DNA of 64,000 nt from a virus (taxonomy: Duplodnaviria; Heunggongvirae; Uroviricota; Caudoviricetes). The position numbers and the translations under genes are program-made. Below are positions 18,834 to 55,035 of the stretch, in pieces; the stretch's first letter is position 1, and every line of letters starts with the position of its first letter. The notes under the pieces are model-generated. The model did no database searches. It had not been told where the DNA came from and worked only from the letters and a program-made list of their open reading frames with translations. The stretch is taken from the IMG/VR virus record IMGVR_UViG_3300042564_004235; one strand, 5' to 3'.

Positions 18834-18842
18834 ACAAACATA

Positions 18843-18925: not shown

Positions 18926-18928
18926 CAA

Positions 18929-19303: not shown

Positions 19304-19375
19304 GCAGGTATCGTATAACGGTTATTACTTCTGACTTCCAATCAGAAGATCTCGGTTCGATTCCGGGTACCTGCT
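19304..19375 (+). tRNA. tRNA-Gly (TCC)
   Basis: Acceptor GCAGGTA/TACCTGC perfect, D-arm GTAT-aacggtta-TTAC, anticodon arm TCTGA-ctTCCaa-TCAGA perfect, T-arm CTCGG-TTCGATT-CCGGG. Confidence 0.75.
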
Positions 19376-19544
19376 CAAATAAACCTTACAGAAGTCCGAA
19401 TAGCGCGGATGAAAGGAACCTTGGCTCTCATAGGATCGCAACCTTTACGGAGAGTTTGAATGTCCCAAGGTACTCTGTAATGGACCCTGCTCTGATGTGC
19501 ACGTCAACAGGTGATGGGGAACAAACCATCGATCAAATCCAAAC

Positions 19545-19577
19545 CCGTGGTGAGCACGGAAGGTTTATTTTTTTTTA
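19545..19577 (+). terminator. rho-independent terminator
   Basis: ccgtggtgagcacgg hairpin followed by aaggtttattttttttt. Closes a ~190-nt GC-rich non-coding unit downstream of tRNA-Gly. Confidence 0.5.
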
Positions 19578-19744
19578 TGGGCCTGATGCCGACGGCAGGT
19601 CGACTGATTTGCAATCAGATCGTTTGGGTTCGATTCCCACAGTGTCCACGAAGACCGGAGTAATTAACCGAGTCCTAACAAGAAGATGGGTCATATATCA
19701 CAGTGTAGTTTGGTACCAATAATTCCTGTCTGTCCTCTTGAATA

Positions 19745-19817
19745 ACTACTTATGGTGTAAATGGAGAGCACGTCGGCACCTAGCCGGAAGATGTAGGTTC
19801 GAGTCCTATGGGTAGTT
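19745..19817 (+). tRNA. tRNA-like, possible Arg(CCT) with A33, irregular D-arm
   Basis: 73 nt. Acceptor ACTACTT/GGGTAGT (2 G:U), T-arm GTAGG-TTCGAGT-CCTAT, anticodon hairpin GTCGG-caCCTag-CCGGA. Position 33 is A rather than U. Confidence 0.3.
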
Positions 19818-19834
19818 CAAAAAAAGTTTAAAAA

Positions 19835-19872
19835 AGATTTGGTAGATTGAAATAAAATACCTATCTTTGTGA
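19835..19872 (+). promoter_or_regulatory. Bacteroidetes-type promoter driving tRNA-Glu
   Basis: aaaaagtttaaaaaagatttggtagattgaaataaaatacctatctttgtgag. tRNA-Glu starts ~12 nt after the -7 box. Confidence 0.5.
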
Positions 19873-19880
19873 GAGTTAAA

Positions 19881-19954
19881 CGCCCGTTGGACAAGCGGTT
19901 TAAGTCGTCTCCCTTTCACGGAGAAGATCATGGGTTCGATTCCCATACGGGTGA
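19881..19954 (+). tRNA. tRNA-Glu (TTC)
   Basis: Acceptor CGCCCGT/ACGGGTG, anticodon arm TCTCC-ctTTCac-GGAGA perfect, T-arm ATGGG-TTCGATT-CCCAT. Confidence 0.75.
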
Positions 19955-20016
19955 CAATAGGACGAACAACGCGACCGCAGGAGTTGTACCTTTATGGTTT
20001 TGTAATGTGGTTTTTT

Positions 20017-20088
20017 GGTCCATTGGTGTAACGGCTAACATATATCCCTGTCACGGATATGCTTCGGGTTCGATTCCCGGATGGACCG
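20017..20088 (+). tRNA. tRNA-Asp (GTC)
   Basis: Acceptor GGTCCAT/ATGGACC perfect, anticodon arm TATCC-ctGTCac-GGATA perfect, T-arm TCGGG-TTCGATT-CCCGG. Confidence 0.75.
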
Positions 20089-20108
20089 CACAAAGTGTTC
20101 TTTGAAAA

Positions 20109-20250
20109 TATTGATAGTGGACGCCTCTACTTATGTTGTCGACGAACTAGGTAGGTCAAGGATAGTCATCACCCTTCTGCCGGTGCACCCTAAAACTCGG
20201 GCAAGCAGTTAAGATTGGAGCGAGACCGGGTACTCCATCACTATCAATAA
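20109..20250 (+). ncRNA. candidate structured RNA element closed by a long-range helix
   Basis: tattgatagtgga ... tccatcactatcaata terminal inverted repeat around ~140 nt of GC-rich non-coding sequence. Confidence 0.2.
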
Positions 20251-20254
20251 TATT

Positions 20255-20357
20255 GTGTTGTTCCCTTGAGAAAGGAAATATAAAGATGAGTGACATTACT
20301 TGAATTATGGAAAACATAATCGTACACTACAACACAGAGGATTTCAACCTCAAATTT
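20255..20357. repeat. repeat B (structured element, copy 2 of 2)
   Basis: Shares gtgttgttcccttgagaaaggaa, the closing helix partner acaacac and caacctcaaattt with copy A. Lies directly upstream of the nuclease-like gene. Confidence 0.5.
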
Positions 20358-20494
20358 GGTAAATGTAATTAGGAGGTAAAAGTGAAATTCTTACCTTAAT
20401 TAGTGTAGGTGTATCAGCAACCTAATTACATTACCTTTATAATCAGGTAACACCTTTGTCCTGTATTGTGATATTTATTAATAAACTAAATATT

Positions 20495-20881
20495 ATGAAA
20501 ACACAAGGTGATAATGCTGAACTTAAATTTATGTTATTCAGTTATGAATTAGGATATATAATATCAAAACCATTTGGGGATAATAGTAAGTATGATTTAA
20601 TAATTGATAACGGAGATTCTTTAGAAAGAATACAAATAAAATCAACAAGTAGAAAAGACACTTCATCCGGAATGGATTGTTATAGTTGTTCTGTTTGCTC
20701 AGGGTCAAAATTGAAAAAAAAATATAACGAAAAAGATGTTGACTTTATTGTTATTTATGTGATACCTGAAAATACTTGGTATAAAATACCAACAAAAGAA
20801 ATAAAAGGAAAGACAGTAAAATTATACCCCCATAGGAAATCACAAAGAAACACCTATGAAAAGTATAGAATCTTGTCCTGA
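20495..20881 (+). CDS. PD-(D/E)xK-like nuclease with Zn-ribbon insert (tentative)
   Basis: First ATG in good context is 20495 (MKTQGDNAELKF). Pattern E..(20)..YDLIID..(8)..ERIQIKS resembles D...(D/E)xK cores. CYSCSVCSG Cys cluster. Confidence 0.35.
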   Translation: MKTQGDNAELKFMLFSYELGYIISKPFGDNSKYDLIIDNGDSLERIQIKSTSRKDTSSGMDCYSCSVCSGSKLKKKYNEKDVDFIVIYVIPENTWYKIPTKEIKGKTVKLYPHRKSQRNTYEKYRILS

Positions 20882-20934
20882 CTACGTGGGAAAGATTCAT
20901 CCCGAAATTAGAACATGGATCACAAACACGTAAA

Positions 20935-21007
20935 CCTAAGTACCCATACCGCTGACGGTGGGCTAAGTAAGATACAATTTCGTACCGCGGGAAGTAGAAT
21001 GCTTAGG
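20935..21007. repeat. tRNA-sized structured element C (paralog of D)
   Basis: 73 nt closed by CCTAAGT/GCTTAGG. Shares gggctaagt.a.atacaatt and gggagtagaatgctt with D. Confidence 0.45.
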
Positions 21008-21108
21008 AGCGTGTTTTTAAATTATAAAAAATTATGACACCATTATTGTTTTTAATATTTATTTTATTTATCTTTGGGGTAAGAAAAAGAAGATAAGTTT
21101 TTGATAAA

Positions 21109-21184
21109 CTCAAGTACCTGTACAGCGGTGAGTAACGGGCTAAGTTATATACAATTCCTCGGAGCTGGGAGTAGAATGCTTGAG
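21109..21184. repeat. tRNA-sized structured element D (paralog of C)
   Basis: 76 nt closed by CTCAAGT/GCTTGAG, a compensatory double change relative to C that keeps the terminal helix. Confidence 0.45.
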
Positions 21185-21195
21185 AGTCAAAGGTT

Positions 21196-21311
21196 GGTCA
21201 GGAGCGTAATGAGGCACGGTGCCGAGTCCTAAAAGTACCACGGTCCATAAGCAATTGGACGCGAGAAACTATAAAGGTTGCTCATTGTGGGTTCGAATCC
21301 CACCCTGACAT
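21196..21311 (+). ncRNA. 116-nt tRNA-like element with internal insertion
   Basis: Acceptor GGTCAGG/CCTGACA (one mismatch at 1:72) and perfect T-arm GTGGG-TTCGAAT-CCCAC. About 45 nt of excess internal sequence with hairpins GGCA-cgg-TGCC and GTCC..GGAC. Confidence 0.3.
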
Positions 21312-21476
21312 CACCGGTTACTTGATTCCTGGTAGTAGAGTAACAACCATTGGGGAATTCGGGATGTCCCGCGAATGGTGGTGTAAGATAAGAGAAACTT
21401 ACAACGGTAGAGTACCATAAACAAAAGAAACAAGACGTAGAGGTGACTCTGCGTTGGCGCAAATCTCTACCAACTT

Positions 21477-21568
21477 AGTCAGGTTGGTACAAGGTCGGTT
21501 CGAGTCCGATGGAAGGTCATGGATGTCGGGTAGCTCCCTGTAGAGAGGTTCGATTCCTCTCCTGACTA
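21477..21568 (+). ncRNA. 92-nt tRNA-like element (possible type II; internal Ser(CGA)-like hairpin)
   Basis: Perfect acceptor AGTCAGG/CCTGACT and T-arm AGAGG-TTCGATT-CCTCT. Internal hairpin GTCGG-ttCGAgt-CCGAT. Arms cannot be placed unambiguously. Confidence 0.3.
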
Positions 21569-21607
21569 CACTTGACATTATTAAATTAATGTCTTATTAT
21601 TATACAA

Positions 21608-21680
21608 AACCGGGTAGCTCAGCTGGTAGAGCAATCCTTTTTAAACAGGACGTGTCATTGGTTCAATCCCTTTCCCGGTT
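21608..21680 (+). tRNA. degenerate tRNA-like (perfect acceptor and D-arm, weak anticodon and T stems)
   Basis: Acceptor AACCGGG/CCCGGTT, canonical TA-GCTC-agctggta-GAGC. Anticodon region only pairs as TCCT/AGGA with an 8-nt loop ttttaaac. T-stem ATTGG/CCTTT is poor. Followed by a T-run. Confidence 0.35.
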
Positions 21681-21705
21681 TTTTTATTTATAAAATTAAA
21701 ATATT

Positions 21706-32807: not shown

Positions 32808-33323
32808 ATGAAAGCAAAACTGATTAAGACTGATTCCAATTATTATCTGTATGTTGATGGAAAAATAATTGCGTCAACAGAATATGTTGAAGGAAATCAA
32901 AAACTCTTCAAACAAAACTGTGATGAGATATTTGGTGTAGTTGATGTTATTGATGTTGTATATAAACAAGTTAGAAACGGATTTGATGGGGTTATAGATT
33001 CATTCACTGAAGCATTTGCTAAAGAATGTATCAACAAAGCAATTGAGTTGAACAAAGACAAGGTATTTACTTTGGAGGATGTTAGAAAAGCATATATGGA
33101 TGGAGTGTCTAATGGTCATAATTTTGGTTATCCTGCAATAGACCACACAGATAAATATATCCAATCCCTTCAACAACCAACAGAAATTGATGTTGAGATT
33201 AAAATGGAACCTTGTTTCTATGACCAATCATTAGGTGGATTTTCAACATCGTATACTGAAGACAAACCAAAAGAACAACCAAAACTTGACGAGAACGGAT
33301 GTTTAATTTTAAAAAAAGCATAA
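32808..33323 (+). CDS. hypothetical protein
   Basis: 171-aa ORF; -7 box acatttgtatt precedes the ATG. Confidence 0.5.
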   Translation: MKAKLIKTDSNYYLYVDGKIIASTEYVEGNQKLFKQNCDEIFGVVDVIDVVYKQVRNGFDGVIDSFTEAFAKECINKAIELNKDKVFTLEDVRKAYMDGVSNGHNFGYPAIDHTDKYIQSLQQPTEIDVEIKMEPCFYDQSLGGFSTSYTEDKPKEQPKLDENGCLILKKA

Positions 33324-33324
33324 A

Positions 33325-33561
33325 ATGGAAAATAGAAGCACACACTACGGAGACGTATCAAACTGGATTGAAAAGATAATTGATTCTTGTGAAACATACC
33401 AACAAACATTTACCGCTAAAAAATTGATTAGTAATTTTGCAAAACAATTAAGAACTAAATCTCCAGATAAATACTGGAACAGTTATCAATACACAGTTAT
33501 TGACCCACTTAATGATTTGGTAAGAATTAAACGACAATCATTCATAAATAAATCGGAATAA
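33325..33561 (+). CDS. hypothetical protein
   Basis: 78-aa ORF. Confidence 0.4.
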   Translation: MENRSTHYGDVSNWIEKIIDSCETYQQTFTAKKLISNFAKQLRTKSPDKYWNSYQYTVIDPLNDLVRIKRQSFINKSE

Positions 33562-33878
33562 TGGAAGAAGTAAAATATCCAATAGGTGGATTTGCTCCTG
33601 GGTTTTATCACTGTAATTGTATAACATGTAAGAATACTTTTTCAGGTGATAAAAGATCCGTTCAGTGTGAACCTTGTGCTATTGAAATGGTTAGAACTAA
33701 AATAGTTGAAAGTGAAAATGGTGGATTTGAAATTGAACAAGATTATTTACAAGGTTTTATTGATCAGTTCGGAGATGGTCCATTAGGTGAATTGGATCCA
33801 AATGAATGGACGGCACCTGATTTTTTAGAATGGTTAAAACTTAACAAATATAAAATTATAAAAGAAAATAAAATATGA
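33561..33878 (+). CDS. hypothetical protein with CxxC pairs
   Basis: HCNCITCKN ... CEPCAIE zinc-ribbon-like motif. Confidence 0.4.
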   Translation: MEEVKYPIGGFAPGFYHCNCITCKNTFSGDKRSVQCEPCAIEMVRTKIVESENGGFEIEQDYLQGFIDQFGDGPLGELDPNEWTAPDFLEWLKLNKYKIIKENKI

Positions 33879-34063
33879 ACAACAACCCCTTTGATCCAAA
33901 TATGTTTAAAAATTTGGAAAACGTAATGAAAGGTTTTCAACAACCACAAAACAATAACGGATTTTTTAATTTTAATAAGATTAAAAAATATTTAATAACA
34001 TTTATTGTTTCAATATTTGTGTCAGGATTTGCATTAGGATTGGCAATTGGATTATTATTTTAA
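33875..34063 (+). CDS. small membrane protein
   Basis: C-terminal TM segment ITFIVSIFVSGFALGLAIGLLF. Confidence 0.4.
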   Translation: MNNNPFDPNMFKNLENVMKGFQQPQNNNGFFNFNKIKKYLITFIVSIFVSGFALGLAIGLLF

Positions 34064-34075
34064 AATTAAAAAGGC

Positions 34076-34225
34076 ATGGAAAAAGTAATTGAAGTAAATT
34101 TAGGAATTGGAATGAATATGTTATTCCCTGAAACAGTAAAGATCGTTATTGAAGACGATACAGATGATGAAACAACTAAAAAACCAAGTAAGGTTAAACC
34201 GGAAATAGAAATAGAAAAGGAGTAG
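34076..34225 (+). CDS. small acidic ORF (49 aa), speculative
   Basis: Hand translation MEKVIEVNLGIGMNMLFPETVKIVIEDDTDDETTKKPSKVKPEIEIEKE. Confidence 0.25.
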   Translation: MEKVIEVNLGIGMNMLFPETVKIVIEDDTDDETTKKPSKVKPEIEIEKE

Positions 34226-34302
34226 GGGTTTACCCTATATTTTAACAAAAAAACTTTTTTAATCAAAATAAATTGTTTAAGTTTGTATAAAAAAGATAGA
34301 AA

Positions 34303-35028
34303 ATGAAAAACATACATTTATTACCAACAGAAAAACCAAGTAGGTTAACTAAACCTGGTGGGAGTTCATCCATTAAACTTTATACTAATGGATTAACTAA
34401 CACACCAAAAGGACATTGTAAGAATTATCATTTATACATCACTTCTAACGAAGAAATTAAAGAAGGAGATTATGGATTAATTGGAAAAGAAGTTGGTAAA
34501 ATTATATTAACTGAAGATGGGTATGAATTTTTAATTGGCAAAGGAGTTTCTTATGAATATGGAGATTATCATTCTTTGCAAAAAGTTTGTAAAAAAATCA
34601 TCCTGACAACAGACCAAGATTTAATCGCAGATGGTGTACAAGCTATTGATGATGAGTTCTTAGAATGGTTTGTTAAGAATCCAAGTTGTGAGTTTGTTGA
34701 AATTAGAAAATATCATAGTGGTATTTTAAGTGATATTACCGAAATTACTTCTTCTCTAAAAATCATCATTCCACAAGAAGAACCTAAACAAGAAACACTT
34801 GAAGAGTATTCTAATGGACTTTACAAACAAAGTTTAAAAGATGATGTAGATTTAACATTTAGTGATGGTGTTAAATTAGGTGCTAAATGGCAATCTGAAA
34901 GAATGTATAGTGAGGAAGAACTAAAAAATGCAATTGAAATATCTGTAGCTAAAGCACTTGGTGTAATGAGCTTTACAATAAATGAAGAATCGTTTGAACA
35001 ATTTAAAAAGAAGTACCATATAAAATGA
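34303..35028 (+). CDS. hypothetical protein
   Basis: 241-aa ORF. Confidence 0.5.
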   Translation: MKNIHLLPTEKPSRLTKPGGSSSIKLYTNGLTNTPKGHCKNYHLYITSNEEIKEGDYGLIGKEVGKIILTEDGYEFLIGKGVSYEYGDYHSLQKVCKKIILTTDQDLIADGVQAIDDEFLEWFVKNPSCEFVEIRKYHSGILSDITEITSSLKIIIPQEEPKQETLEEYSNGLYKQSLKDDVDLTFSDGVKLGAKWQSERMYSEEELKNAIEISVAKALGVMSFTINEESFEQFKKKYHIK

Positions 35029-35269
35029 TTGACTGATGAAAAAAATTTACATATTTTTTTGGTGGTTATGGAATTATCCTGAAATAGTGTGGATGAAATT
35101 CAAATCAAAATTTAAGAGATGACAAATAAAATGAAAGAGTTTCTTGATAAAGTGGATAAAATTTGTTATGAATATCGTTATGAAATAAAACCCACCCATC
35201 CTGTTCCAGATGATGAATATCCCACTTTAACAATTATAGGTGATGGTGAAACGGTAAAGTTAATATACA

Positions 35270-35755
35270 TTGACGGAGAGGGAATTGGTATTAAATAGTA
35301 AAACAAAGATGAAAAACATTAAAGAACTTACTGAAGACGAAGCAAAAGATATTTTAAAATTTGTCTATCCAAATGAGAAATATTATTGGTTTAAAAAATT
35401 ATCATTTGAACCGGTTATTACTGAAGATGGTAAACAACAAATAACATTTGATGGTCGGTCAATTATAGGTATTGAATTTCACGATGGTCAGGACAATTGC
35501 ATATTACATTTTGATAATTCCAAAGTGGTTTTATGGTTACATAAAAATGGTTATGATATTACAGAATTACTTGAAACAAATTCTTACCTTAGCCAAATGG
35601 AAAAAGATTTTGAAAACTTCGCATTTGCAATTGAATGGATATCAAAAGGTGAAGAAGGATTTAAAGATGGTTTTAAACAAAATTGGACATTGGAATATGT
35701 TACAAAAAAATGTAGAGAATTATTAGACAAATACTACTATAAAGATTATGAGTGA
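35270..35755 (+). CDS. hypothetical protein
   Basis: 161-aa ORF. Confidence 0.45.
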   Translation: MTERELVLNSKTKMKNIKELTEDEAKDILKFVYPNEKYYWFKKLSFEPVITEDGKQQITFDGRSIIGIEFHDGQDNCILHFDNSKVVLWLHKNGYDITELLETNSYLSQMEKDFENFAFAIEWISKGEEGFKDGFKQNWTLEYVTKKCRELLDKYYYKDYE

Positions 35756-35975
35756 ACAAATTAAAATAGAACTTTCCTTTACTATGGAGGAAATGGAGAA
35801 CTTCCTTTTATACAACTACCCAACAAACTATCACTGGAAAGACAGGGTTAAAAAAGACGTAATGGTGTGGGGTAACGATATTGTTGTTGAAGACATAAAA
35901 GAAGAATTTGTTAAGTGTTTCAAGGAAACATTATTGAGTCAAAGACTTAATTCAAGACCATCAATATACAAATAA
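35748..35975 (+). CDS. hypothetical small protein
   Basis: 75-aa ORF. Confidence 0.4.
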   Translation: MSEQIKIELSFTMEEMENFLLYNYPTNYHWKDRVKKDVMVWGNDIVVEDIKEEFVKCFKETLLSQRLNSRPSIYK

Positions 35976-35982
35976 AACAAAG

Positions 35983-36501
35983 ATGAATAAAGAAACAAAG
36001 TTTAAAGTGGGAGACAAGGCTCACAAACCAAAAGGTTATAAATTTCCTTGCACAATTGTAGGTGTATTTGAAACAATTGCTGGTGAAGTTCGGGTGATTG
36101 GTGAAATGGATGAATACGGATTATTACACATCTTTAACGAAAATCAATTGGAACATTATGGTAAAAACGAACCAGACTTATTGAATGAGGCTTATATGGG
36201 TTATTACTGGATAATGGGGGATAAAATTAAATTAACACAAAATGAATTTATCAACAAATGTAAAACAGATCTGGAGTTCTCTGAAAGGTGGGGATTAACC
36301 ATTGAAGAACGAGAGTTGAGTGATGATGAAAGGTTTAGAATTGCTTACAAAAATTTAGATTTAAGAAAGGAATTAGAAGCGCAAAGTAAAATGTTACACT
36401 ATCCTGATGGTCATAATAAAGCTATGGATGAAGCAAACATCCCAACCAAATTAATCACAATAACATACAACGATAAAACAATAGAAAGTTATGAGCAATG
36501 A
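35983..36501 (+). CDS. paralog-array protein P1 (SERWGL motif plus C-terminal IPTKLITITYNDKTIESYE)
   Basis: Contains TDLEFSERWGLTIEERELS and the conserved 19-aa C-terminus. Stop overlaps the start of the next gene. Confidence 0.55.
   Translation: MNKETKFKVGDKAHKPKGYKFPCTIVGVFETIAGEVRVIGEMDEYGLLHIFNENQLEHYGKNEPDLLNEAYMGYYWIMGDKIKLTQNEFINKCKTDLEFSERWGLTIEERELSDDERFRIAYKNLDLRKELEAQSKMLHYPDGHNKAMDEANIPTKLITITYNDKTIESYEQ
36441..36498. repeat. junction cassette J1 (~58 bp, conserved at DNA level)
   Basis: cccaaccaaattaatcacaataacatacaacgataaaacaatagaaagttatgagcaatg. About 90% identical to J2, J3, J5 and J6. Confidence 0.6.
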
Positions 36502-36742
36502 TAAAACAAAATGGGAAGACATAAATTTCCCAAGAGTTAAAAATATACAAGCAAAAACACTAGCTGATAGCATTGAAGGAATTCCAACAAAAGACATGCC
36601 AAAACGTATGGCAGAAATGTATACGTCAGTATTTAAACACGCATTAGAAACAATAAACAAAGAACTAAATGAAATACGTGGCGTTGAAGGTAAAGAAGAT
36701 AGAGTTAAATACCTTGAAGAACTTTTAGCAGCGTGGTCATAA
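36491..36742 (+). CDS. hypothetical small protein (array interstitial gene)
   Basis: 83-aa ORF starting inside junction cassette J1. Confidence 0.4.
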   Translation: MSNDKTKWEDINFPRVKNIQAKTLADSIEGIPTKDMPKRMAEMYTSVFKHALETINKELNEIRGVEGKEDRVKYLEELLAAWS

Positions 36743-36755
36743 AAAATTGAAAGTT

Positions 36756-37145
36756 ATGAATAAAGAACAACAAGAATTATTGGGTGAGGCTTATAAGGCA
36801 TTTGAAAAGTGGTACAACGAACATTCAGGTAAGGAAGATTATACAGGTTACTTTGTCCCGGACAAAGAAGAATTTATTAGACTAATCAAAACAGATGATC
36901 TGTTTTCTGAAAGGTGGGGATTAAAAATTGAAGAACGAAAGTTGAATTTAGATGAACGAGCTAAACTCCACCCAAATCCTGAAAATTTCTATGATATTCA
37001 CGGAACATTTTCAATTAGTAATAGTATTGAAGATAGTAACTTTCCAGATAAAGATTGGTTACACGAACAATTTGATAAACACAATATCCCAACCAAACTA
37101 ATCACAATAACGTACAACGATAAAACAATTGAAAGCTATGAGTAA
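36756..37145 (+). CDS. paralog-array protein P3
   Basis: ATG 36756 (MNKEQQELL); the track start at 36747 is a TTG. Contains DDLFSERWGLKIEERKLN and the C-terminal NIPTKLITITYNDKTIESYE. Confidence 0.55.
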   Translation: MNKEQQELLGEAYKAFEKWYNEHSGKEDYTGYFVPDKEEFIRLIKTDDLFSERWGLKIEERKLNLDERAKLHPNPENFYDIHGTFSISNSIEDSNFPDKDWLHEQFDKHNIPTKLITITYNDKTIESYE

Positions 37146-37146
37146 A
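37088..37146. repeat. junction cassette J2
   Basis: cccaaccaaactaatcacaataacgtacaacgataaaacaattgaaagctatgagtaa. Confidence 0.6.
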
Positions 37147-37335
37147 CAAGAATACGAACTTGCAGTGGGTATGTACCAACAATACCAAAAAGATGTTGCT
37201 ATAGTAGGAAATCCTATGAACATTTATCAAGTAAAAACATTACAACTGCTTGAAAAAAACTTTAAAGATAAACAAATAATTGAACCAAAATGGTATCAAA
37301 AATTAATAGGAGCATTTAAAAATAGAAAGTTATGA
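37129..37335 (+). CDS. hypothetical small protein
   Basis: 68-aa ORF starting in J2 (MKAMSKQEYEL). Confidence 0.4.
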   Translation: MKAMSKQEYELAVGMYQQYQKDVAIVGNPMNIYQVKTLQLLEKNFKDKQIIEPKWYQKLIGAFKNRKL

Positions 37336-37589
37336 ATAACGAATTATCGGTTAAAGACATTAAATACGGGTTGATAGTCGTTGATCCAACGCAAGAAAGT
37401 GAAATGATGGACATCCTACATTTTGTCGGTTACTGGACTGAACCAACCAAAAATGACGCTAATTTATTGAGAGAGGAACTAATGACTGATGAAGAATTTG
37501 GACTGACGGAAATTGCTCACCGACTTGATATTCTACCCGCACCTGATTATATTGTTAAAGAATATATTAAAGACCTCGACGATGAATAA
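37332..37589 (+). CDS. hypothetical small acidic protein
   Basis: 85-aa ORF. Confidence 0.4.
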   Translation: MNNELSVKDIKYGLIVVDPTQESEMMDILHFVGYWTEPTKNDANLLREELMTDEEFGLTEIAHRLDILPAPDYIVKEYIKDLDDE

Positions 37590-37935
37590 AGAACAACAAG
37601 AAATAATTGATGAAGCTTACGAGAATTATTGTAAAGAATACGAAAATGGTACTCATTTAATAGGTACTGGCTTATTATGGATGGCAAAAGAAACTAAAGG
37701 AACGTTTGTCTATAGAAGCAAAACCGATCTTGAGTTCTCTGAAAAGTGGGGACTAAAGATTGAGGAGCGAGATTTGAGTTTCGAAGAAAGACAAGAAAGA
37801 TGCCCTGTATGGACAAAAGATTCTTATGGAATGGATGGCGAATTAAGGTCTCCTATTACAATAGATTGGGATAAAACTCCAACAAAACTAATCACAATAA
37901 CATACAACGATAAAACAATTGAAAGTTATGAATAA
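37582..37935 (+). CDS. paralog-array protein P6
   Basis: ATG 37582 (MNKEQQEIIDEAYENY). Contains TDLEFSEKWGLKIEERDLS and the C-terminal TPTKLITITYNDKTIESYE. Confidence 0.55.
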   Translation: MNKEQQEIIDEAYENYCKEYENGTHLIGTGLLWMAKETKGTFVYRSKTDLEFSEKWGLKIEERDLSFEERQERCPVWTKDSYGMDGELRSPITIDWDKTPTKLITITYNDKTIESYE

Positions 37936-37936
37936 A
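37877..37936. repeat. junction cassette J3
   Basis: ctccaacaaaactaatcacaataacatacaacgataaaacaattgaaagttatgaataaag. Confidence 0.6.
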
Positions 37937-38131
37937 GATGTATACGATTGGATGAAGCAATGGTCAGACCTTGTTAATAAAGAAATACCACAAGAAGATT
38001 TTTGGATTGAAACACCTGTTGGTAGATTTAAGAATCCTAAATTTATACCAGAAGAAAGTGAATTTGATAATGAAATCAACATTACTATCAAGTATGATGA
38101 GTGGGATAAAACAATTGAAAGTTATGAGTAA
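37928..38131 (+). CDS. paralog-array short member (C-terminal DKTIESYE only)
   Basis: MNKDVYDWMKQW ... YDEWDKTIESYE. Keeps only the 3' half of the cassette (J4, 38105-38131). Confidence 0.45.
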   Translation: MNKDVYDWMKQWSDLVNKEIPQEDFWIETPVGRFKNPKFIPEESEFDNEINITIKYDEWDKTIESYE

Positions 38132-38516
38132 AGAACAGGAAAAATTGGTGGATGAGGCTTATAATAATTTTATTAAGAAAACTAAAGGTTTAAATCTTTT
38201 TTTAGAAGTCAATAAAGATATTGTAGCGGTAGAAGGACCTGTTTACAACGCACATCCAAAATTATTAACACAAGAAGAGTTCATCAACAAAATCAAAACA
38301 GATGATGAGTTCGCTAAAAAGTGGGGATTAAAAATTGAAGAACGAGAGTTGAGTTTGGAAGAAAGGTATAAAATAGCCCTCCCAATATGGAAAGAAAAAT
38401 ACGGTCTTTTAGCTAATATGATGGTTCCTACTAATGTAGATAACACACCTTATAAAATCCCAACCAAACTAACCACAATAACATACAACGACAAAACAAT
38501 AGAAAGTTATGAATGA
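38124..38516 (+). CDS. paralog-array protein P8
   Basis: ATG 38124 (MSKEQEKLVDEAY). Contains DDEFAKKWGLKIEERELS and the C-terminal IPTKLTTITYNDKTIESYE. Confidence 0.55.
   Translation: MSKEQEKLVDEAYNNFIKKTKGLNLFLEVNKDIVAVEGPVYNAHPKLLTQEEFINKIKTDDEFAKKWGLKIEERELSLEERYKIALPIWKEKYGLLANMMVPTNVDNTPYKIPTKLTTITYNDKTIESYE
38459..38516. repeat. junction cassette J5
   Basis: cccaaccaaactaaccacaataacatacaacgacaaaacaatagaaagttatgaatgaa. Confidence 0.6.
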
Positions 38517-38850
38517 AATTGAAACAATACAAGAAACGATAACTAGGTTTATCAATAAGGGTGTGTATCAAACTAAAATAATACCAACTGAATCACCTTC
38601 TGTCGTTATTTGGTCAAAGACACGAAAATGTCTTGTAGGTGGTAAAGACCAACCAAATTCACTTGAAGTGATAGATGATGGTAATGGTAATTTATCACTT
38701 GGTATTGATAACAATATCTTTATCTCTTTACAAAACAGAAGTGAATTATCCGAATCTGATGTGAAAGAAATAAATGAATCCGAAGGGATTATAGTTACAA
38801 ACGCAACATATGGCAAACCTTATTTTAGATATGGATTTATACCAAACTAA
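38509..38850 (+). CDS. hypothetical protein (array interstitial gene)
   Basis: 113-aa ORF (MNEIETIQET...). Its 3' end runs into the decayed cassette J6. Confidence 0.45.
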   Translation: MNEIETIQETITRFINKGVYQTKIIPTESPSVVIWSKTRKCLVGGKDQPNSLEVIDDGNGNLSLGIDNNIFISLQNRSELSESDVKEINESEGIIVTNATYGKPYFRYGFIPN

Positions 38851-38895
38851 TCACAATAAAATGCAACGACAAAAAAATTGAAAGTTATGAATAAA
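38841..38895. repeat. junction cassette J6 (decayed; reading frame broken)
   Basis: ataccaaactaatcacaataaaatgcaacgacaaaaaaattgaaagttatgaataaag. Stops interrupt the ancestral ...PTKLITI..NDKKIESYE frame, but nucleotide identity is kept. Its ATG serves the thyA-family gene. Confidence 0.55.
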
Positions 38896-39717
38896 GCCGA
38901 TAAATATTATATCCAAAATCTATCAAATATTATGTCAGATGGATCTTGGGATGAAAATCCAAGACCAAAGTATTCTGATGGAACACCGTCACATTCAAAG
39001 TTTATAACACAAGTATTTGAAGAATATGACATATCAAAAGGCGAGTTTCCAATCCCAACATTAAGAAATACCGCAATTAAAATTGGTATTAAAGAAATTT
39101 TATGGATATACCAAAAACAAACTTCATCACTTGATGTTGCTCGTGAGATGGGTATTAACTGGTGGGAAGAATGGAATATTGGAGATAATAGTATTGGTCA
39201 GAGATATGGCGCAACAATCAAAAGATATGATTTGATGAATAAACTACTTGATGGATTAGTTAATGATCCATTTGGTAGAAGGCATATTATTAGTATGTAT
39301 CAATATGTTGATTTAGAAGAAACAAATGGTTTATTTCCTTGTGCTTATGAAATACTCTGTTCGGTTAGAAAAGTTGATAAAGATAAGGTTTTGGATATGA
39401 CGTTGGTCCAAAGATCAAACGATTATTTGGTTGCGGGTTATATTAATAAAGTGCAATATTTGGCTTTACAAATGATGGTTGCGGGACATTGTGGTTATAA
39501 AGTTGGTAAGTTCTGTCATTTAGTCCAAAACCTTCATATATATGATAGACATTTTGATGGTGTTTCAGAACTATTAAACAAGGAACCATTAGACACACAA
39601 CCAAAGTTAATTTTAAAGGAAAATAAAAACTTCTACGACTATACAATTGATGATTTTGAGATTACCGGTATTGACGGTATAACTAAAATAAATTCAAAAT
39701 TAGAGTTGGCAATTTAA
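38887..39717 (+). CDS. thymidylate synthase-family enzyme (ThyA or dNMP hydroxymethylase-like)
   Basis: FGRRHIISMYQY (like SRRxIxSAWNP), nucleophile context LFPCAYEI (like PCH.F.QF), TLVQRSNDYLVAGYINKVQY (like LYQRS.D..LG.PFNIASY) and NLHIYDRH (like DAHIYxNH). ATG 38887; the track start at 38878 is a TTG. Confidence 0.65.
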   Translation: MNKADKYYIQNLSNIMSDGSWDENPRPKYSDGTPSHSKFITQVFEEYDISKGEFPIPTLRNTAIKIGIKEILWIYQKQTSSLDVAREMGINWWEEWNIGDNSIGQRYGATIKRYDLMNKLLDGLVNDPFGRRHIISMYQYVDLEETNGLFPCAYEILCSVRKVDKDKVLDMTLVQRSNDYLVAGYINKVQYLALQMMVAGHCGYKVGKFCHLVQNLHIYDRHFDGVSELLNKEPLDTQPKLILKENKNFYDYTIDDFEITGIDGITKINSKLELAI

Positions 39718-39765
39718 ACTTTTTTGGTTTTAATAGATATTTATATGGTAAGGAGGTAATACCAT

Positions 39766-40518
39766 ATGATTATTTATAAGACAACAAATTTAGTAAACCA
39801 AAAATTTTATGTGGGTAAGGACACAAATAATAACCCTAACTATTATGGTTCAGGTAAAAGGTTAAAACTGGCAATTAAAAAATACGGAATTGTGAACTTC
39901 AAAAAAGAAACTTTAGAAGTTTGTAACACACTAGAGTTACTTAATGAAAGAGAAAAATTTTGGATTAAAGAATTAAAAGCAATCACTGAAGGTTATAATA
40001 TTTCGTTAGGTGGTGATGGTGGCGATACTATAAGTAATAATCCAAGAAGGGATGATATAAGATTGGAACATAGTAGAAAAATGAAATCACCAAAACACAA
40101 TAAGAAGAAAGGAACTAAAATTATAAAATTAAAAAAAAGAGACGATCCCGATTGGGTTAACCCACGAAAAGGTAAAGTTGGCCCAATAAAAGGTAGACCA
40201 AACGGAAAAAAAGGCATACCAAACCCGGAACACTCAAAATGGATGAAAGAAAACAACCCGTTCAAAGGGAAAACACATACACCAGAAGTGGTCCAAAAAA
40301 TAAAAGAAGTAAATTCAAAACCTAAAAGTGAAGAGCATAAACGAAAAATATCAGAAACGTTAAAGGGAAATAAACCAGGTAATATGAGAAAAGTTATTGT
40401 TGATGGTATTGAGTATGAAAGTTTAAGTGAAGGTGCGAGACAAATTGGTATACCGACATCAACTATAAAAAATAGATTAAAATCACCAAAGTTTGAAAAT
40501 TACAAATATAAAGAGTAA
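39766..40518 (+). CDS. GIY-YIG homing endonuclease with NUMOD3-like C-terminal repeats
   Basis: MIIYKTTNLVNQKFYVGKD...YYGSGKRLKLAIKKYG (GIY...YIG). C-terminal repeats EHSRKMKSPKHNKKKG, EHSKWMKENNPFKGKTHTPE and EHKRKISETLKGNKPGN. Confidence 0.8.
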   Translation: MIIYKTTNLVNQKFYVGKDTNNNPNYYGSGKRLKLAIKKYGIVNFKKETLEVCNTLELLNEREKFWIKELKAITEGYNISLGGDGGDTISNNPRRDDIRLEHSRKMKSPKHNKKKGTKIIKLKKRDDPDWVNPRKGKVGPIKGRPNGKKGIPNPEHSKWMKENNPFKGKTHTPEVVQKIKEVNSKPKSEEHKRKISETLKGNKPGNMRKVIVDGIEYESLSEGARQIGIPTSTIKNRLKSPKFENYKYKE

Positions 40519-40525
40519 ATTAATT

Positions 40526-40774
40526 ATGATACACCAAATAAAAACCTTTGATGATAAGACCCTTGTGGAACTGAAAATTATTGATCACGGAACAGAATTT
40601 TATACTTCAAACGAACTTTCCGTTCTTAAACAAAAAATTATGGATGCAAACCAGGAACACGGTTTACAATTTGAGAATGACTTCTCATATTTAAATGGAA
40701 TTAAAGAAGAAACAATAAACGATAAATTCACTGAGATAAGTGAAAGATGGGGATTAACCTACGAAAAAGTGTAA
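40526..40774 (+). CDS. hypothetical small protein
   Basis: ATG 40526 (MIHQIKTFDD) avoids overlap with the GIY-YIG 3' end. Confidence 0.4.
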   Translation: MIHQIKTFDDKTLVELKIIDHGTEFYTSNELSVLKQKIMDANQEHGLQFENDFSYLNGIKEETINDKFTEISERWGLTYEKV

Positions 40775-40989
40775 CTATGAAAGAACTATCAAATAGACAT
40801 ATGAACACACTTAAAAACACATTTCCTGACCTTGAAATTCAAAAGGAAGTTGAACCACAAACACAACTTGATGAACTAAACGACTATTTGAGGTTATTGG
40901 CTGATATGGATAATATTGGTATTAGAAGAAAACTTTTTCTTCTTGAGGGATATATGAATAAAGTTATAAGTCAATTAAAAAATAAATAA
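40747..40989 (+). CDS. hypothetical small protein
   Basis: 80-aa ORF. Confidence 0.4.
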   Translation: MGINLRKSVTMKELSNRHMNTLKNTFPDLEIQKEVEPQTQLDELNDYLRLLADMDNIGIRRKLFLLEGYMNKVISQLKNK

Positions 40990-40990
40990 T

Positions 40991-41497
40991 ATGAGCGAAA
41001 AACAAACGTATGATTATGGATGTGTGATGTTGTATTTTGATTTTCCTGAAATCAAAAACCTACATTCATTAATTGATGAAGAAGATATATACACCGAAGA
41101 TGGTGATAGAAGTTTTGGTTTAGAAGATGAACCACACACAACATTACTTTATGGATTGCATGATGATGTGACAGAAGATGATGTTAGAGATGTTGTTAAT
41201 GGTTTTGATTATGTAACTTGTAGAATCACAAATCCATCTTTATTTGAAAATGAAAACTATGATGTTTTAAAATTTGATGCGAGTGGGCCAAACCTACACG
41301 AAACAAATTTTGAACTAAAAAATTATCCACACACGACATCTTTTCCTAACTACCATCCACATTTAACTATCGGTTATTTAAAACCAGGTATGGGTAAAAA
41401 ATATGTAAATAAACTAAAAGGATTACAGTTTAAATTGGATCCGACCCATGTTGTTTATTCTATGGCAAATGGGGATCAAATAAATTATGATTTATGA
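40991..41497 (+). CDS. 2H phosphoesterase superfamily protein (LigT/Acb1-like)
   Basis: Two H-x-T-x motifs (EPHTTLLYGL and HPHLTIGYL) ~75 aa apart, in a 168-aa protein. Confidence 0.6.
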   Translation: MSEKQTYDYGCVMLYFDFPEIKNLHSLIDEEDIYTEDGDRSFGLEDEPHTTLLYGLHDDVTEDDVRDVVNGFDYVTCRITNPSLFENENYDVLKFDASGPNLHETNFELKNYPHTTSFPNYHPHLTIGYLKPGMGKKYVNKLKGLQFKLDPTHVVYSMANGDQINYDL

Positions 41498-41754
41498 AAT
41501 ACAGAAAAAAACCAGTAGAAATTGATGCGATACAATGGGTATCCGATAACATTGAACAAGTGTATGAAATGTTAGGTGATAATCTAATAATAAATACAGA
41601 TGAAGATAAAGATGAGGTAAAACATTTCATTAACACATTGGAAGGTAAAATGGAGATGTCTTGGGGTGACTACATAATCAAAGGAGTTAAGGGCGAATTT
41701 TATCCGTGTCGTGAGGATATATTTTTATTAACTTATGAAAAATGCGTTGATTAA
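41494..41754 (+). CDS. hypothetical small protein
   Basis: 86-aa ORF. Confidence 0.4.
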   Translation: MKYRKKPVEIDAIQWVSDNIEQVYEMLGDNLIINTDEDKDEVKHFINTLEGKMEMSWGDYIIKGVKGEFYPCREDIFLLTYEKCVD

Positions 41755-41797
41755 TATTTTATGGTGTTTATTTTACTTATAAACCAAAAAATAAAAG

Positions 41798-42562
41798 ATG
41801 CCGTTTAAAGACAAAGAAAAATTAAAAGAGTGGAGAAGAAAATGGTGGTCATCATTAAATCCTGAAAGAAAAAAAGAAAAACAAGAAAAGGCAAACAATA
41901 GATCTAAAAAAATAAAACAGTTTCTTGCTGAATATAAAATAGAAATAGGATGTGTGGATTGTGGTTATAATATCCACCATGCGGCATTAGATTTTGATCA
42001 TATCACAAATGATAAATCATTTAATGTTTGTTTTGCAAAAAGTATTACACAGGCTAAAAAAGAAATTAAAAAATGTGAAGTAGTTTGTGCTAATTGTCAT
42101 AGAATAAGAACATATAATAGAATACAAAAAAATAAAATTATGAAAACAAAAGTATATTCAGCATTTCCTGGTGTAGGGAAAACAACTTATTTTAACACCA
42201 CAGATAAAAACGTATTGGACAGCGATAGTTCAAAGTTTGATAAGAAACTATTTCCTGCAAACTATATTGAACATATTGAAAGAAACATCCAAGACCCAAA
42301 GGTTGATATGATCCTTGTATCATCACATAAAGACGTTAGAGACGCACTTCTTAAAAAAGGAATACCTTACGTATTGGTTTATCCACAAAGAGACATCAAA
42401 GATGAGTATATCCAAAGATATAAAGATAGAGGAAACAACGACGCGTTTGTTGACTTATTGAATAAAAATTGGGATAATTGGATGGATGAGATGGACAGTC
42501 AAGAAGGTTGTGAAAAAGTAACACTTGGTCCTGGTCAATATTTAGCTGACGTAATAAATTAA
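41798..42562 (+). CDS. HNH endonuclease domain fused in-frame to a P-loop kinase-like domain
   Basis: N-terminal HNH (CVDCGYNIHHAALDFDHITNDKS...CEVVCANCHRIRTYN). Internal Met then Walker A MKTKVYSAFPGVGKTTYFN and VLDSD. Confidence 0.55.
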   Translation: MPFKDKEKLKEWRRKWWSSLNPERKKEKQEKANNRSKKIKQFLAEYKIEIGCVDCGYNIHHAALDFDHITNDKSFNVCFAKSITQAKKEIKKCEVVCANCHRIRTYNRIQKNKIMKTKVYSAFPGVGKTTYFNTTDKNVLDSDSSKFDKKLFPANYIEHIERNIQDPKVDMILVSSHKDVRDALLKKGIPYVLVYPQRDIKDEYIQRYKDRGNNDAFVDLLNKNWDNWMDEMDSQEGCEKVTLGPGQYLADVIN

Positions 42563-42639
42563 GATATGAAAAGATTATTTAAATACCTTGCTTGGTTAGA
42601 GCAAGAAAGAATTAAAGCGATGTCACAATCCGGTAGAGG

Positions 42640-42876
42640 ATGGGGATAAAACGTATTCACGTTAATCAACATAATGTTAGGTCCAATAAAACAAAGGACA
42701 CCGATCTTCCTGTAATAACAATTAAGGAAGGTAAGACCAATACGTACTGTAACGAAGTGGAGATACTTGGACCAAGTAAAATAAAGTATTGTGGTAGTGG
42801 AGATAAAAAACCATTATTACCTTGTGGTGCTAGAGTAGTAATAGAAACAGAGAGTGAAATTAAAATAATAAGTTAA
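42640..42876 (+). CDS. hypothetical small protein
   Basis: 78-aa ORF. Confidence 0.4.
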   Translation: MGIKRIHVNQHNVRSNKTKDTDLPVITIKEGKTNTYCNEVEILGPSKIKYCGSGDKKPLLPCGARVVIETESEIKIIS

Positions 42877-42877
42877 C

Positions 42878-43198
42878 ATGACAGATAAAGACATCTCAAA
42901 ATTCGGAGAAATACAATACCTCAAAGGTAGATTAGATGAACTATTTAAAGCGTTACCGACAGTATTTGATGTAAGTAGAAGTAGAAAACTTGACCAAAGA
43001 GTGGAAAAGTATTTGATTAAACTTAGAAACGTTGATGAGGTTTCTTTTCATTTATATCAAGTGGAATTAAAAACCAGACACAAATCAAAAGAAAGATCCA
43101 AAAAAGAAATAAAAGAACTATTGGAGGAAGTGTCTAAATCAGAAAACATATCAGAAGAATTATTAGAAAAAATTAAAAAACAAATTGATAAATATTAA
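42878..43198 (+). CDS. hypothetical coiled-coil protein
   Basis: 106-aa K/E-rich ORF. Confidence 0.4.
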   Translation: MTDKDISKFGEIQYLKGRLDELFKALPTVFDVSRSRKLDQRVEKYLIKLRNVDEVSFHLYQVELKTRHKSKERSKKEIKELLEEVSKSENISEELLEKIKKQIDKY

Positions 43199-53901: not shown

Positions 53902-55035
53902 ATGGAAAATTTAAATAGTGTTGCATATGTTGGTAAGATAGGTTCTATATCTGAAATACCAAACGCCGATAACATAGAGTTAGTTACTGTTGGTGGGTGG
54001 AACGCCATAACCAAGAAAGGCGAATACAAAGTAGACGATAAGGTTGTTGTTGCAACTACTGATGCGGTAATACCACAAGCTTTATCTGACTTGATGGAAG
54101 TAACTAACTACCTTCGTAAAGGACAAAGAGTTCGTACCGTTAAACTTCGAGGTGTTTACTCTGAATGTTTATTAATACCATTCAAATACTTGGCACCAAA
54201 ATCATTGGAGAACAACGTTAATGAAGGTGATGATATGATGGGAATACTTGGTATAACTAAATACGAACCACCAGTTAAAACCGTTCAGTTAAGTGTTGGT
54301 GGACGTAAAATAAAATACCACCAAAACCCTAACTTCAAAGTTTACTACAAGTTCCCTAACCAAAAGAACGTACCTGATATGTTCAGTGAGGAAGATGAAG
54401 TTGTTATAACTCGTAAACTTCATGGAACTAATGCTCGTTACGGTATAGTTAGAAAGAAAAAACTATCTATATGGGATCGTGTTAAAATGTTCTTTGGAAA
54501 TCAATGGGCAGCATTTGAATATGTTTATGGTTCTCATAACGTAGAAAAAGGTTCTGACTCACAAGGATTCTATGATACTGATGTGTGGAAAACTGTAGCA
54601 AACAACTACGACATAAGAGGTAAGTTGTGGGATCACGTAAAAGATACTTACGAACCACTTGACTTGACTGAAGGTGTTGTAATATACGGTGAGATATATG
54701 GTGCTGGTATACAGAAAAACTACGAGTACGGTTTGACTGATGTTAAATTTGCTGGATTTGATGTTGAAGTTGACGGAGTGTACCAACCATACATAAATGA
54801 AACGGTACATTTTGATTGTCTTCAATTACCTCAAGTTGAGTTACTATACAAAGGCATATGGGTTAAAGAAATACAAGATAGTTTTGTATTCAATAACAAC
54901 ATAGAAGGGACTAAAGTACCACACGAAGGTGTTGTTGTTAAATCTATAACTGGTGACCGTAGAAAGGTTAGTAAGGTAATAAATCCTGACTATTTAATAT
55001 ATGGTGAAAAAAATAACGTAGGTGACTCCCATTAA
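53902..55035 (+). CDS. RNA ligase, Rnl2/Rnl5-like nucleotidyltransferase
   Basis: Motif I ITRKLHGTNARYG (KxHGxN, the Rnl2-family lysine-adenylylation motif), preceded by an N-terminal ~110-aa domain as in Rnl5/NgrRnl-type ligases. Confidence 0.55.
   Translation: MENLNSVAYVGKIGSISEIPNADNIELVTVGGWNAITKKGEYKVDDKVVVATTDAVIPQALSDLMEVTNYLRKGQRVRTVKLRGVYSECLLIPFKYLAPKSLENNVNEGDDMMGILGITKYEPPVKTVQLSVGGRKIKYHQNPNFKVYYKFPNQKNVPDMFSEEDEVVITRKLHGTNARYGIVRKKKLSIWDRVKMFFGNQWAAFEYVYGSHNVEKGSDSQGFYDTDVWKTVANNYDIRGKLWDHVKDTYEPLDLTEGVVIYGEIYGAGIQKNYEYGLTDVKFAGFDVEVDGVYQPYINETVHFDCLQLPQVELLYKGIWVKEIQDSFVFNNNIEGTKVPHEGVVVKSITGDRRKVSKVINPDYLIYGEKNNVGDSH

Follow-up and report, generated by a model that had tools for sequence, protein, structure and literature searches.

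A putative mobile junction cassette upstream of thyA in uncultured phages, traced to the 3′-end of a thymidylate synthase-derived mini-gene

The promoter-early stem-loop (PeSL) cassettes of T4-type phages are mobile, intergenic elements in which a sigma-70 promoter and a stem-loop terminator are combined with a Shine-Dalgarno (SD) sequence, and nearby copies of them recombine to give mini-circles (Arbiol et al. 2010, PMC2839356; Comeau et al. 2014, PMC4122927). They are the closest analogue of the element described here, which is found in a 64,000-nucleotide (nt) stretch of caudoviricete DNA (IMG/VR record IMGVR_UViG_3300042564_004235), hereafter the window. The region 35983–38895 carries nine close-packed genes (P1–P9) on the + strand, after which come thyA, a GIY-YIG endonuclease gene and a small open reading frame (ORF). 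A cassette of 26–58 bases ends one small gene of this array and begins the next. We consider it moderately probable (roughly 0.6) that this is a mobile junction cassette which originated as the 3′-end of a ThyA-derived mini-gene and now serves the shuffling of accessory genes beside thyA as a portable stretch of homology and, probably, as a stop/restart module.

Like a PeSL, the cassette is a short conserved motif, copies of which flank small ORFan genes in a hyperplastic region; it bridges one gene's stop and the following gene's start, and insertions, deletions and replacements between close relatives end in it. Unlike a PeSL, it has no promoter, stem-loop or SD sequence, it is largely coding (the 3′-end of a protein family) with stop and start overlapping, and it belongs to an SD-less host type. 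Having neither promoter nor stem-loop, it is an analogue and not a member of the PeSLs. Shuffling linkers have been documented mainly as promoter-terminator cassettes of T4-type coliphages, whereas the present one is a translational stop/start junction. Also new are the lineage, a large group of uncultured phages with apparently SD-less signals of the Bacteroidota type, and an origin of the linker that appears traceable to the 3′-end of a thymidylate synthase-derived mini-protein, where T4 td carries its mobile intron.

P1, P3, P6 and P8 belong to one protein family and have an internal block and a C-terminus in common, at the coordinates and with the sequences first described in an earlier note on this DNA; P7 is, as also stated there, a fifth gene that retains only ...DKTIESYE. 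Alignment of the family reveals an N-terminus MNKEQQELLDEAYxNY, a hypervariable segment V1, the middle block KEEFINKCKTDxEFSEKWGLKIEERELSxxER, a second variable segment V2 and the conserved C-terminus, the final seven codons of which (K-T-I-E-S-Y-E-stop) share bases with the initiation codon of the next gene (...AGTTATGAATAA). At the 3′-ends of the four family genes the 32-nt sequence CCAACCAAACTAATCACAATAACATACAACGA is present in four copies, each 31/32 identical, and shuffled sequences yielded none. The 20-nt core AAAACAATWGAAAGYTATGA gives nine matches at ≤3 mismatches where 0.23 are expected in 64 kb, with no mismatch at five junctions and one to three at three further ones. The shorter GAAAGYTATGA occurs nine times (0.14 expected in 64 kb), eight of them at consecutive junctions from P1 to thyA; the ninth, at 26773, is unrelated to the array. 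The nucleotide conservation claimed for six junctions (J1–J6) is thus real, but six was too few, since eight carry copies. The two that had been missed are P2 to P3, where the core is non-coding, and P4 to P5, where it is read in another frame; the copies at the junctions from P1 to thyA use three reading frames.

The junction before thyA (J6) had been interpreted as a decayed, frame-broken copy, an interpretation that the comparison with a relative contradicts. From 38842 (CCAAAC...) to the start of thyA it matches, at 100% identity, an unbroken and in-frame family C-terminus in locus L119, NNIPTKLITIKCNDKKIESYE and stop (alignment A7). On this alignment, J6 is best described as a cassette that was truncated at its 5′-end when P9 was joined in, and not as a product of mutational decay. 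Its ATG (38887) is the start codon of thyA, as had been proposed.

A scan of IMG/VR for exact matches to the 20-mer core recovered at least 117 viral contigs, many with two to six copies; about 10 matches were dropped as unrelated coding coincidences (giant-virus-like ...IKTIESYDTTTVRAS). The window and the loci among the matches listed make up 210 unique contexts, to which the following counts refer. The upstream gene stops at +5 (...TIESYE) in 98, at −9 (...KQ, the TAG of CAATAG) in 43 and at +1 (...NNRKL) in eight, and in about 17 the core is non-coding, with the upstream stop lying further 5′. At least 98 unrelated protein clusters start at a cassette. Family genes adjoin at least 30 different clusters downstream and at least 16 upstream at cassettes, and thyA has at least nine different upstream neighbours. 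The cassette was not found in any isolated phage when the phage collection was searched by DNA; this phage is uncultured, and thyA alone of the window's DNA finds matches in that collection.

Comparison with close relatives reveals that the array is not invariant. In L072 and L091, which are 87–97% identical to the window, P1 is joined straight to P8, P2–P7 (1.6 kb) are missing, and an additional gene of 81 amino acid residues (aa) with cassette copies on both sides is located between J6 and thyA. Phages with a thyA that is 94–98% identical at the DNA level possess one to nine array genes: the order is P1′–P8-like–P3–thyA in L118 and P1′–thyA in L119, while L120 carries a chimera of P1 (N-terminal part) and P8 (V2) at 5438–6004, followed by thyA. 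The breakpoints of every indel between the window and L072, L118, L119 and L120 lie inside the cassette. P2 is also found between cassettes in L035 and L094, in other contexts and at 89% nt identity. As read from these alignments, it is precisely at the cassette that genes are gained, lost and exchanged among the more than 100 related, uncultured phages. The indel breakpoints and the highly variable neighbours support the recombination hotspot for small accessory genes that the earlier note had suggested, and the comparison of relatives proposed there did locate gene gain and loss at the cassette boundaries. Gene fusions at former cassette junctions were seen as well, an example being a 396-aa ThyA, the N-terminal extension of which resembles a small MNKEQAKDALIE... 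protein.

The suggestion of constraint at the DNA or RNA level is upheld by the occurrence of one core in three frames and at a non-coding position, and by the fixation of rare synonymous codons. Among approximately 105 unique family genes, the C-terminal block is dominated by codons that are rare in this genome, namely ACC (92%, genome background 15%), CTA (94%, background 8%), ATC (90% against 13%) and AAC (98% against 32%), and the conserved blocks likewise favor TAC (79% against 25%), CGA (75% against 6%), TTG (79% against 15%) and GAG (88% against 17%). The 25 family genes at loci retrieved by way of thyA, a sample not biased toward the cassette, have a codon homozygosity of 0.75 on average; the value for thyA from this clade is 0.648 (0.525 expected), and only 4 of its 199 columns show fixation of a rare codon. 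Rare codons in the conserved blocks of the family are fixed far above the thyA background. The window contains 23 tRNA genes at 9131–21682, one of which (21607–21682) was called with a four-base anticodon (ttaa); its tRNA-Leu(tag) and tRNA-Ile(gat) decode CTA and ATC, rare codons fixed in the cassette.

These data also bear on a rival explanation, namely that nothing operates at the DNA level and that the genes are recent tandem duplicates held alike by protein constraint and codon bias. In its favor, the C-terminal block forms a β-hairpin of the predicted fold and is conserved as protein in diverged homologues (L173, CPTKLTTINYNGQIQEIYE and stop; also L131 and L142), in which the motif and the TATGAATAA overlap are kept and the DNA has drifted. 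Nevertheless we regard it as very improbable, because the four paralogs carry four unrelated V2 modules, each also present in other phages, the core extends to other frames and to a non-coding position, the codons fixed are the rare ones, and the cassette precedes the 98 or more unrelated families counted among the matches listed. Cassette identity is 0.819 between genomes and 0.815 within them (permutation p 0.63, not significant), which suggests a population-wide pool and not homogenization genome by genome; intragenomic concerted evolution was dropped for this reason.

The family is abundant and unannotated. A profile search returned at least 7,610 clusters, all designated “hypothetical” and none with a Pfam domain; the proteins measure approximately 115–140 aa, and V2 exists in dozens of unrelated types which reassort with V1. 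No Pfam match at E ≤ 1 was obtained for P1, P3, P6 and P8, and the nine genes P1–P9 gave no matches to Pfam and PHROGs save P5, which corresponds to phrog_27446 (unknown function). AlphaFold2 modeling of P3 gave a predicted local distance difference test (pLDDT) score of 83, and a Foldseek search against BFVD returned uncharacterised phage proteins and weak ThyA matches, but nothing else. None of the bacterial and archaeal genomes searched encodes the family, and isolated phages yielded no homologue apart from a match inside the 423-aa ThyA of Flavobacterium phage immuto_2-6A, to which P8 is 78% identical over 23 aa. With the window's own thyA the family has no similarity (hhalign probability 0.1); the link to ThyA is visible solely via the Flavobacterium-phage type with insertions.

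The family profile (A6) was compared with a ThyA profile (A8) composed of immuto_2-6A ThyA and seven classical ThyAs from cassette loci, the homology being noted at window 35983–38516 (P1, P3, P6 and P8) and at L197 4647–5918. The N-terminal half, DEAYKNY-V1-EEFINKIKTDDEFAKKWG, corresponds to the ThyA small domain (hhalign probability 98.1, E 8e-14), and the C-terminal half, GLKIEERELS..V2..IPTKLITITYNDKTIE, to GFQVYTRELS..V2..IPTRAISLMWNQRSVD (probability 85.6, E 5.6e-6; BLASTP E 5e-5). The two halves are colinear: the first covers the small-domain helix with the V1 insertion site, and the second, two strands of the central sheet with the V2 hairpin insertion. The family lacks any equivalent of ThyA residues 142–210, which include the phosphate-binding DSRR motif and the catalytic cysteine of PPCH. 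Across contigs, full-length ThyAs and family genes have V1 modules in common (100% identity over 34 aa and 87.5% over 32 aa), and a full-length ThyA and a family gene have a V2 module in common (70.6% over 34 aa). By these comparisons two internal segments of a ThyA of the Flavobacterium-phage type gave rise to the family. The earlier note had left the family uncharacterised, but it is no orphan; the profile comparison and structure prediction recommended there yielded ThyA homology by hhalign and a confident AlphaFold2 fold, and BLASTP points the same way. The family differs from ThyA (PF00303) in length (approximately 130 aa against 276–423 aa), in having DKT.E in place of the QRS.D residues, and in the lack of a Pfam match. 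It thereby gains an ancestry that can be tested.

Arrays of partial copies beside a full-length gene are also known from Borrelia (vlsE/vls) and Neisseria (pilE/pilS), where the copies are not expressed and carry variable segments in conserved flanks. The present array is similar in that tandem partial copies adjoin a full-length gene, conserved flanks bracket variable segments, and identical variable modules are found, across contigs, in array members and in full-length ThyAs. It differs in that its members are complete ORFs with an ATG and a confidently predicted fold, and in that the window's own thyA is without variable insertions.

In the reading that we prefer, the 5′, middle and 3′ blocks of the family, as near-identical DNA across a large population of uncultured phages, would act as portable homology. 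Crossovers in the blocks would reassort V1 and V2 modules among family members and with full-length thyA, whereas those in the 3′ block or junction would lead to the gain, loss or exchange of entire genes in the array that immediately precedes thyA. Genes unrelated to the family have been joined to a short form of the cassette, spanning approximately −16 to +10 around the ATG. The core possesses a stop codon for each frame beside the ATG (CAATAG, ATGA, ATGAATAA), and any upstream gene joined to it therefore ends a few bases from the next start. Termination at such a place would suit coupled translation on a polycistronic, unstructured, SD-less mRNA. From the sequences we infer that homologous recombination between cassettes is the shuffling mechanism and that the core functions as a stop/restart expression module.

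The cassette has two lengths. Homology to the long cassette extends 48–55 nt 5′ of the ATG in 65 contexts and 16–19 nt in 82, with few contexts between the two modes. In 79 independent upstream contexts the edge lies at 16 nt in 25, at 15–19 nt in 32 more and at 22–26 nt in seven, while the 3′ edge is graded (+5/6, +8/9, +12). Random 5′ truncation of the long form, which should result in a flat length distribution, was rejected on account of this bimodality, and the short cassette (GAT, then past the edge AAAACAATAGAAAGTT-ATGAATAA) is a discrete unit. Among 80 thyA-anchored loci about 20 have a cassette before thyA, all with a thyA of at least 77% aa identity, and equally close relatives lack one. 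In the same loci, 4 of 22 family genes have an upstream cassette, always behind another family member, which suggests that by origin the cassette is the 3′-end of a family gene.

Some of these observations, and the way in which the data were gathered, weigh against the preferred reading. Most cassette loci were found via an exact core match, and the core itself therefore looks more conserved than it is. Recombination alone does not account for the abrupt 5′ limit of the short cassette at −16. The cassette is dispensable for expression, inasmuch as 4/22 family genes and about 20/80 thyA genes have one. The case for recombination, finally, is wholly comparative.

Alternatively, the 26-nt core may be conserved mainly as a cis-acting expression signal with defined limits, shuffling being a by-product as in the T4 PeSLs; candidates include a docking or re-initiation site for the 30S subunit, a compact phage promoter giving leaderless mRNA, and an operator for an RNA-binding translational repressor. 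The 5′ edge at −16 is sharp behind dozens of upstream genes that are not related to one another, and on the 3′ side conservation reaches +8/+12, an extent that fits the mRNA track of the 30S subunit (approximately −15 to +16). Signals that abut the ATG are usual in this phage, in which −7 boxes are found 4 nt from the ATG at a minimum of 12 genes; stops are available in three frames, each of which is used; and the junction RNA is unstructured and poor in G. We nevertheless judge such a signal to be unlikely as the primary explanation. All eight copies are confined to one 3-kb array and none precedes the approximately 95 other genes of the 64 kb; most family genes and thyAs in the unbiased loci lack the cassette; it resembles neither the TAnnTTTG promoter nor any Rfam family; and in the TIESYE frame the S codon varies as a whole codon (TIEQYE, TIEKYE, TIEIYE), which points to protein-level and not RNA-level constraint at that codon. 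If the core were a self-contained restart signal, it would offer a compact tool for polycistronic expression in Bacteroidota.

The expression signals of the window indicate a host that is SD-less and of the Bacteroidota type: an SD-like motif was seen for 5 of 106 crude ORFs on the + strand. The number of sigma-70-type sites (52) shows no enrichment over expectation (54). The nearest Bacteroidota-type −7 box upstream of the array, TAAGTTTG, is located at 34278..34285 on the + strand; the TAnnTTTG scan of this strand found no box between 34278 and the next one at 43359, and no + strand terminator-like sites are present in 33000–43000. Since approximately 9 kb are thus devoid of a promoter box and + strand terminator, the array is probably part of a polycistronic unit of about that size. 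Folding of the RNA at the eight junctions gave minimum free energies of 0 to −4.5 kcal/mol, which are not below those of shuffles (z −0.40 to +1.41, positive for seven of the eight); no hairpin or inverted-repeat potential was detected at these junctions, and an Rfam search with the cassette returned nothing credible. The translational coupling envisaged in the earlier note is therefore plausible, given an SD-less host, a promoter-free stretch and unstructured RNA, but it is not required, as most family and thyA genes are without the cassette. The 16S rRNA presumably ends in CUUUCU at its 3′ tail, which is complementary to the AGAAAG of the cassette; an SD-like role for this motif was rejected because a distance of 2 nt from the ATG is the wrong geometry.

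Elsewhere in the window, TAnnTTTG −7 boxes occur 4–5 nt 5′ of the ATG at no fewer than 12 genes (6800, 13451, 29506, 32796, 43611, 46815, 48249, 49261, 52260, 52287, 53496 and 59005), which suggests that leaderless or near-leaderless mRNAs are a common design in this phage. A unit of approximately 60 nt, ...aaaaaagatttggYagattaaaaaa...TAnnTTTGtaaaacaaa, is repeated in or near the tRNA region (5535, 5764, 12689, 13451, 18431, 18612 and 19862) and probably represents −33/−7 promoters.

The gene after thyA (39766..40518, + strand) encodes a free-standing homing endonuclease of the I-TevI family. By BLASTP its product is 30% identical to T4 I-TevI over 250 aa, at full length (E 1e-23), and it matches the Pfam entries I-TevI_DNA-bd (39.5 bits, cut-off 27 bits) and NUMOD3. 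Homologues with 28–98% identity are located 50–80 nt after thyA in dozens of loci, whether or not a cassette is present. The resemblance to T4 td homing lies in an I-TevI-family gene beside a thymidylate synthase gene, variably present among close relatives, and in a cassette which encodes the homologous ThyA strand and, in its long form, contains CAACG, the native I-TevI cleavage motif (PMC5009752). An I-TevI-type homing site is situated in the thymidylate synthase segment ...YQRSVDVFLG^LPFN, its CNNNG cleavage motif being 23–25 nt upstream of the insertion point. The differences are that the endonuclease is free-standing behind thyA, as are the T4-like seg genes, and not intronic; that the repeated sites are in ThyA-derived mini-genes and not in thyA; and that the distribution of the endonuclease follows thyA and not the cassettes. 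Double-strand breaks introduced by this enzyme may make the region a hotspot, as we infer from its position.

It could further be argued that the cassette is the recognition and cleavage site of this endonuclease, a degenerate thymidylate synthase homing site at which cutting drives the joining and shuffling. The protein is a full-length I-TevI homologue with the corresponding DNA-binding domain. The family C-terminus TYNDKTIESYE aligns with MWNQRSVDTFLG of ThyA, and T4 td exon 1 ends ...WYQRSVDVFLG^TAA, which places the family stop no more than one codon from the point at which the T4 intron is inserted. CAACG is found at −23..−19 from the next ATG in long cassettes, where the predicted top-strand nick, at −20/−19, is three bases from the −16 edge. 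In L054 (5590–7510), L076 (13589–14671) and L094 (6448–8488), moreover, thyA is split exactly at V1 by a different, 240-aa endonuclease-like gene (NUMOD1), the N-terminal fragment of 105 aa ending ...GDAYxSYL... and the C-terminal fragment beginning MKANKNDLHESGRPLSQEEFI.... However, the endonuclease gene tracks thyA: it is present in the cassette-less L169, L173, L191 and L196 and absent from the cassette-bearing L118 and L120. The cassette encodes a homologue of the ThyA strand at the td homing site, but it does so outside thyA, and its consensus has no nucleotide similarity to the T4 site beyond CAACG, a motif that is 4 nt out of register in the homologous alignment and is missing from the short cassettes, which are the majority. 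The QRS region of thyA is the same in relatives with and without the endonuclease, a comparison that is uninformative. On balance we find a role of the cassette as cleavage site quite improbable.

A further scheme is doubtful as well. Homing endonuclease-driven gene capture and module exchange would entail the cutting of homing-site copies at the 3′-ends of the mini-genes, followed by repair that captures genes and swaps V1 and V2 with ThyA, and −16 would then mark the cut-and-join point. If true, a homing endonuclease would produce an integron-like outcome, and the array would be a reservoir of surface variants for the phage ThyA. The finding permits a concrete experiment that ties homing endonucleases to accessory-gene turnover.

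The SD sequence of the endonuclease gene is strong (AAGGAGGT, 39740–39768) and unusual for a window in which 5/106 genes have anything SD-like, which hints that the gene may have been acquired recently, its donor being a phage whose host uses SD sequences. At the DNA level thyA, too, is matched best by Bacillus and Enterococcus phages.

We give almost no credence to a site-specific gene-cassette system, be it integron-like (attC and integrase) or a diversity-generating retroelement. Promoterless, same-strand small genes with a repeated element between them, variable among relatives, recall an integron, and hypervariable segments between conserved flanks recall a retroelement. Yet attC sites are imperfect inverted repeats that fold into a hairpin, whereas the junctions here are unstructured and lack inverted-repeat or hairpin potential, and no integrase, recombinase or reverse transcriptase was present among the selected window proteins scanned near the array. 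The retroelement was rejected because the variable modules are unrelated in sequence and length, unlike the products of adenine-specific mutagenesis.

The array, all of it on the + strand, is laid out as follows. P1 (35983..36501) combines a family gene and an N-terminal module of 58 aa in one fused ORF. In L133 this module is a separate gene (...NENQLEHYE and stop) that overlaps the ATG of the family gene, and P1 is on this evidence a fusion spanning a former junction, which is located at approximately 36142–36197 (repeat D3). Its conserved middle block, KTDLEFSERWGLTIEERELS (36231..36344, repeat family D2), is homologous to the ThyA small-domain helix and a strand of the central sheet. The first long cassette, encoding IPTKLITITYNDKTIESYEQ and stop, occupies 36439..36501 (core 36475–36494), and the ATG of P2 is at 36491. 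P2 (36491..36742), an unrelated 83-aa gene, lies between cassettes; the short cassette that follows (36740..36759) is 3′ of the P2 stop and hence non-coding, with the P3 ATG at 36756. The family gene P3 (36756..37145) has its middle block at 36857–36970 and a long cassette at 37086–37145 (core 37122–37141). P4 (37138..37335), an unrelated 65-aa gene, terminates within a short cassette in another frame (...KNRKL and stop, ATGA overlap); this copy, at 37316..37335, has three mismatches, and the P5 ATG is at 37332.

P5 (37332..37589) is an unrelated gene of 85 aa, and its junction with P6 consists of the stop/start overlap GATGAATAA only, without the core. In the family genes P6 (37582..37935) and P8 (38124..38516) the middle blocks are at 37689–37802 and 38264–38377, and the long cassettes at 37876–37935 (core 37912–37931) and 38457–38516 (core 38493–38512). 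Their four V2 types, counting P1 and P3, all differ. Between them is P7 (37928..38131), a 67-aa gene ending ...ITIKYDEWDKTIESYE and stop, with the core at 38108–38127. P9 (38509..38850), an unrelated 113-aa gene, is joined into the cassette, its stop being the TAA within CCAAACTAATC; the truncated J6 copy covers 38842..38894 (core 38871–38890). thyA (38887..39717) encodes a divergent ThyA of 276 aa without V1 or V2 insertions (Pfam Thymidylat_synt, E 4e-61). Directly after the endonuclease gene, and outside the array, an ORF of 82 aa (40526..40774, + strand) ends in a segment resembling the middle block (...NDKFTEISERWGLTYEKV and stop; repeat D5, alignment) and looks like another remnant of the ThyA small domain.

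For metagenomic work, AAAACAATAGAAAGTTATGAATAA offers a sequence handle for hyperplastic regions and mobile ORFans. Two further products of the window may be mentioned. For the RNA ligase encoded at 53902–55035 (phrog_968, E 9e-57) isolated phages offer nothing closely related, and the nearest proteins, at 28% identity, are those of uncultured huge phages. The 168-aa protein encoded at 40991–41497 shows weak resemblance, below the Pfam thresholds, to the 2′-5′ RNA ligase superfamily (E 9e-5) and to Acb1, an anti-CBASS protein (E 9e-4).

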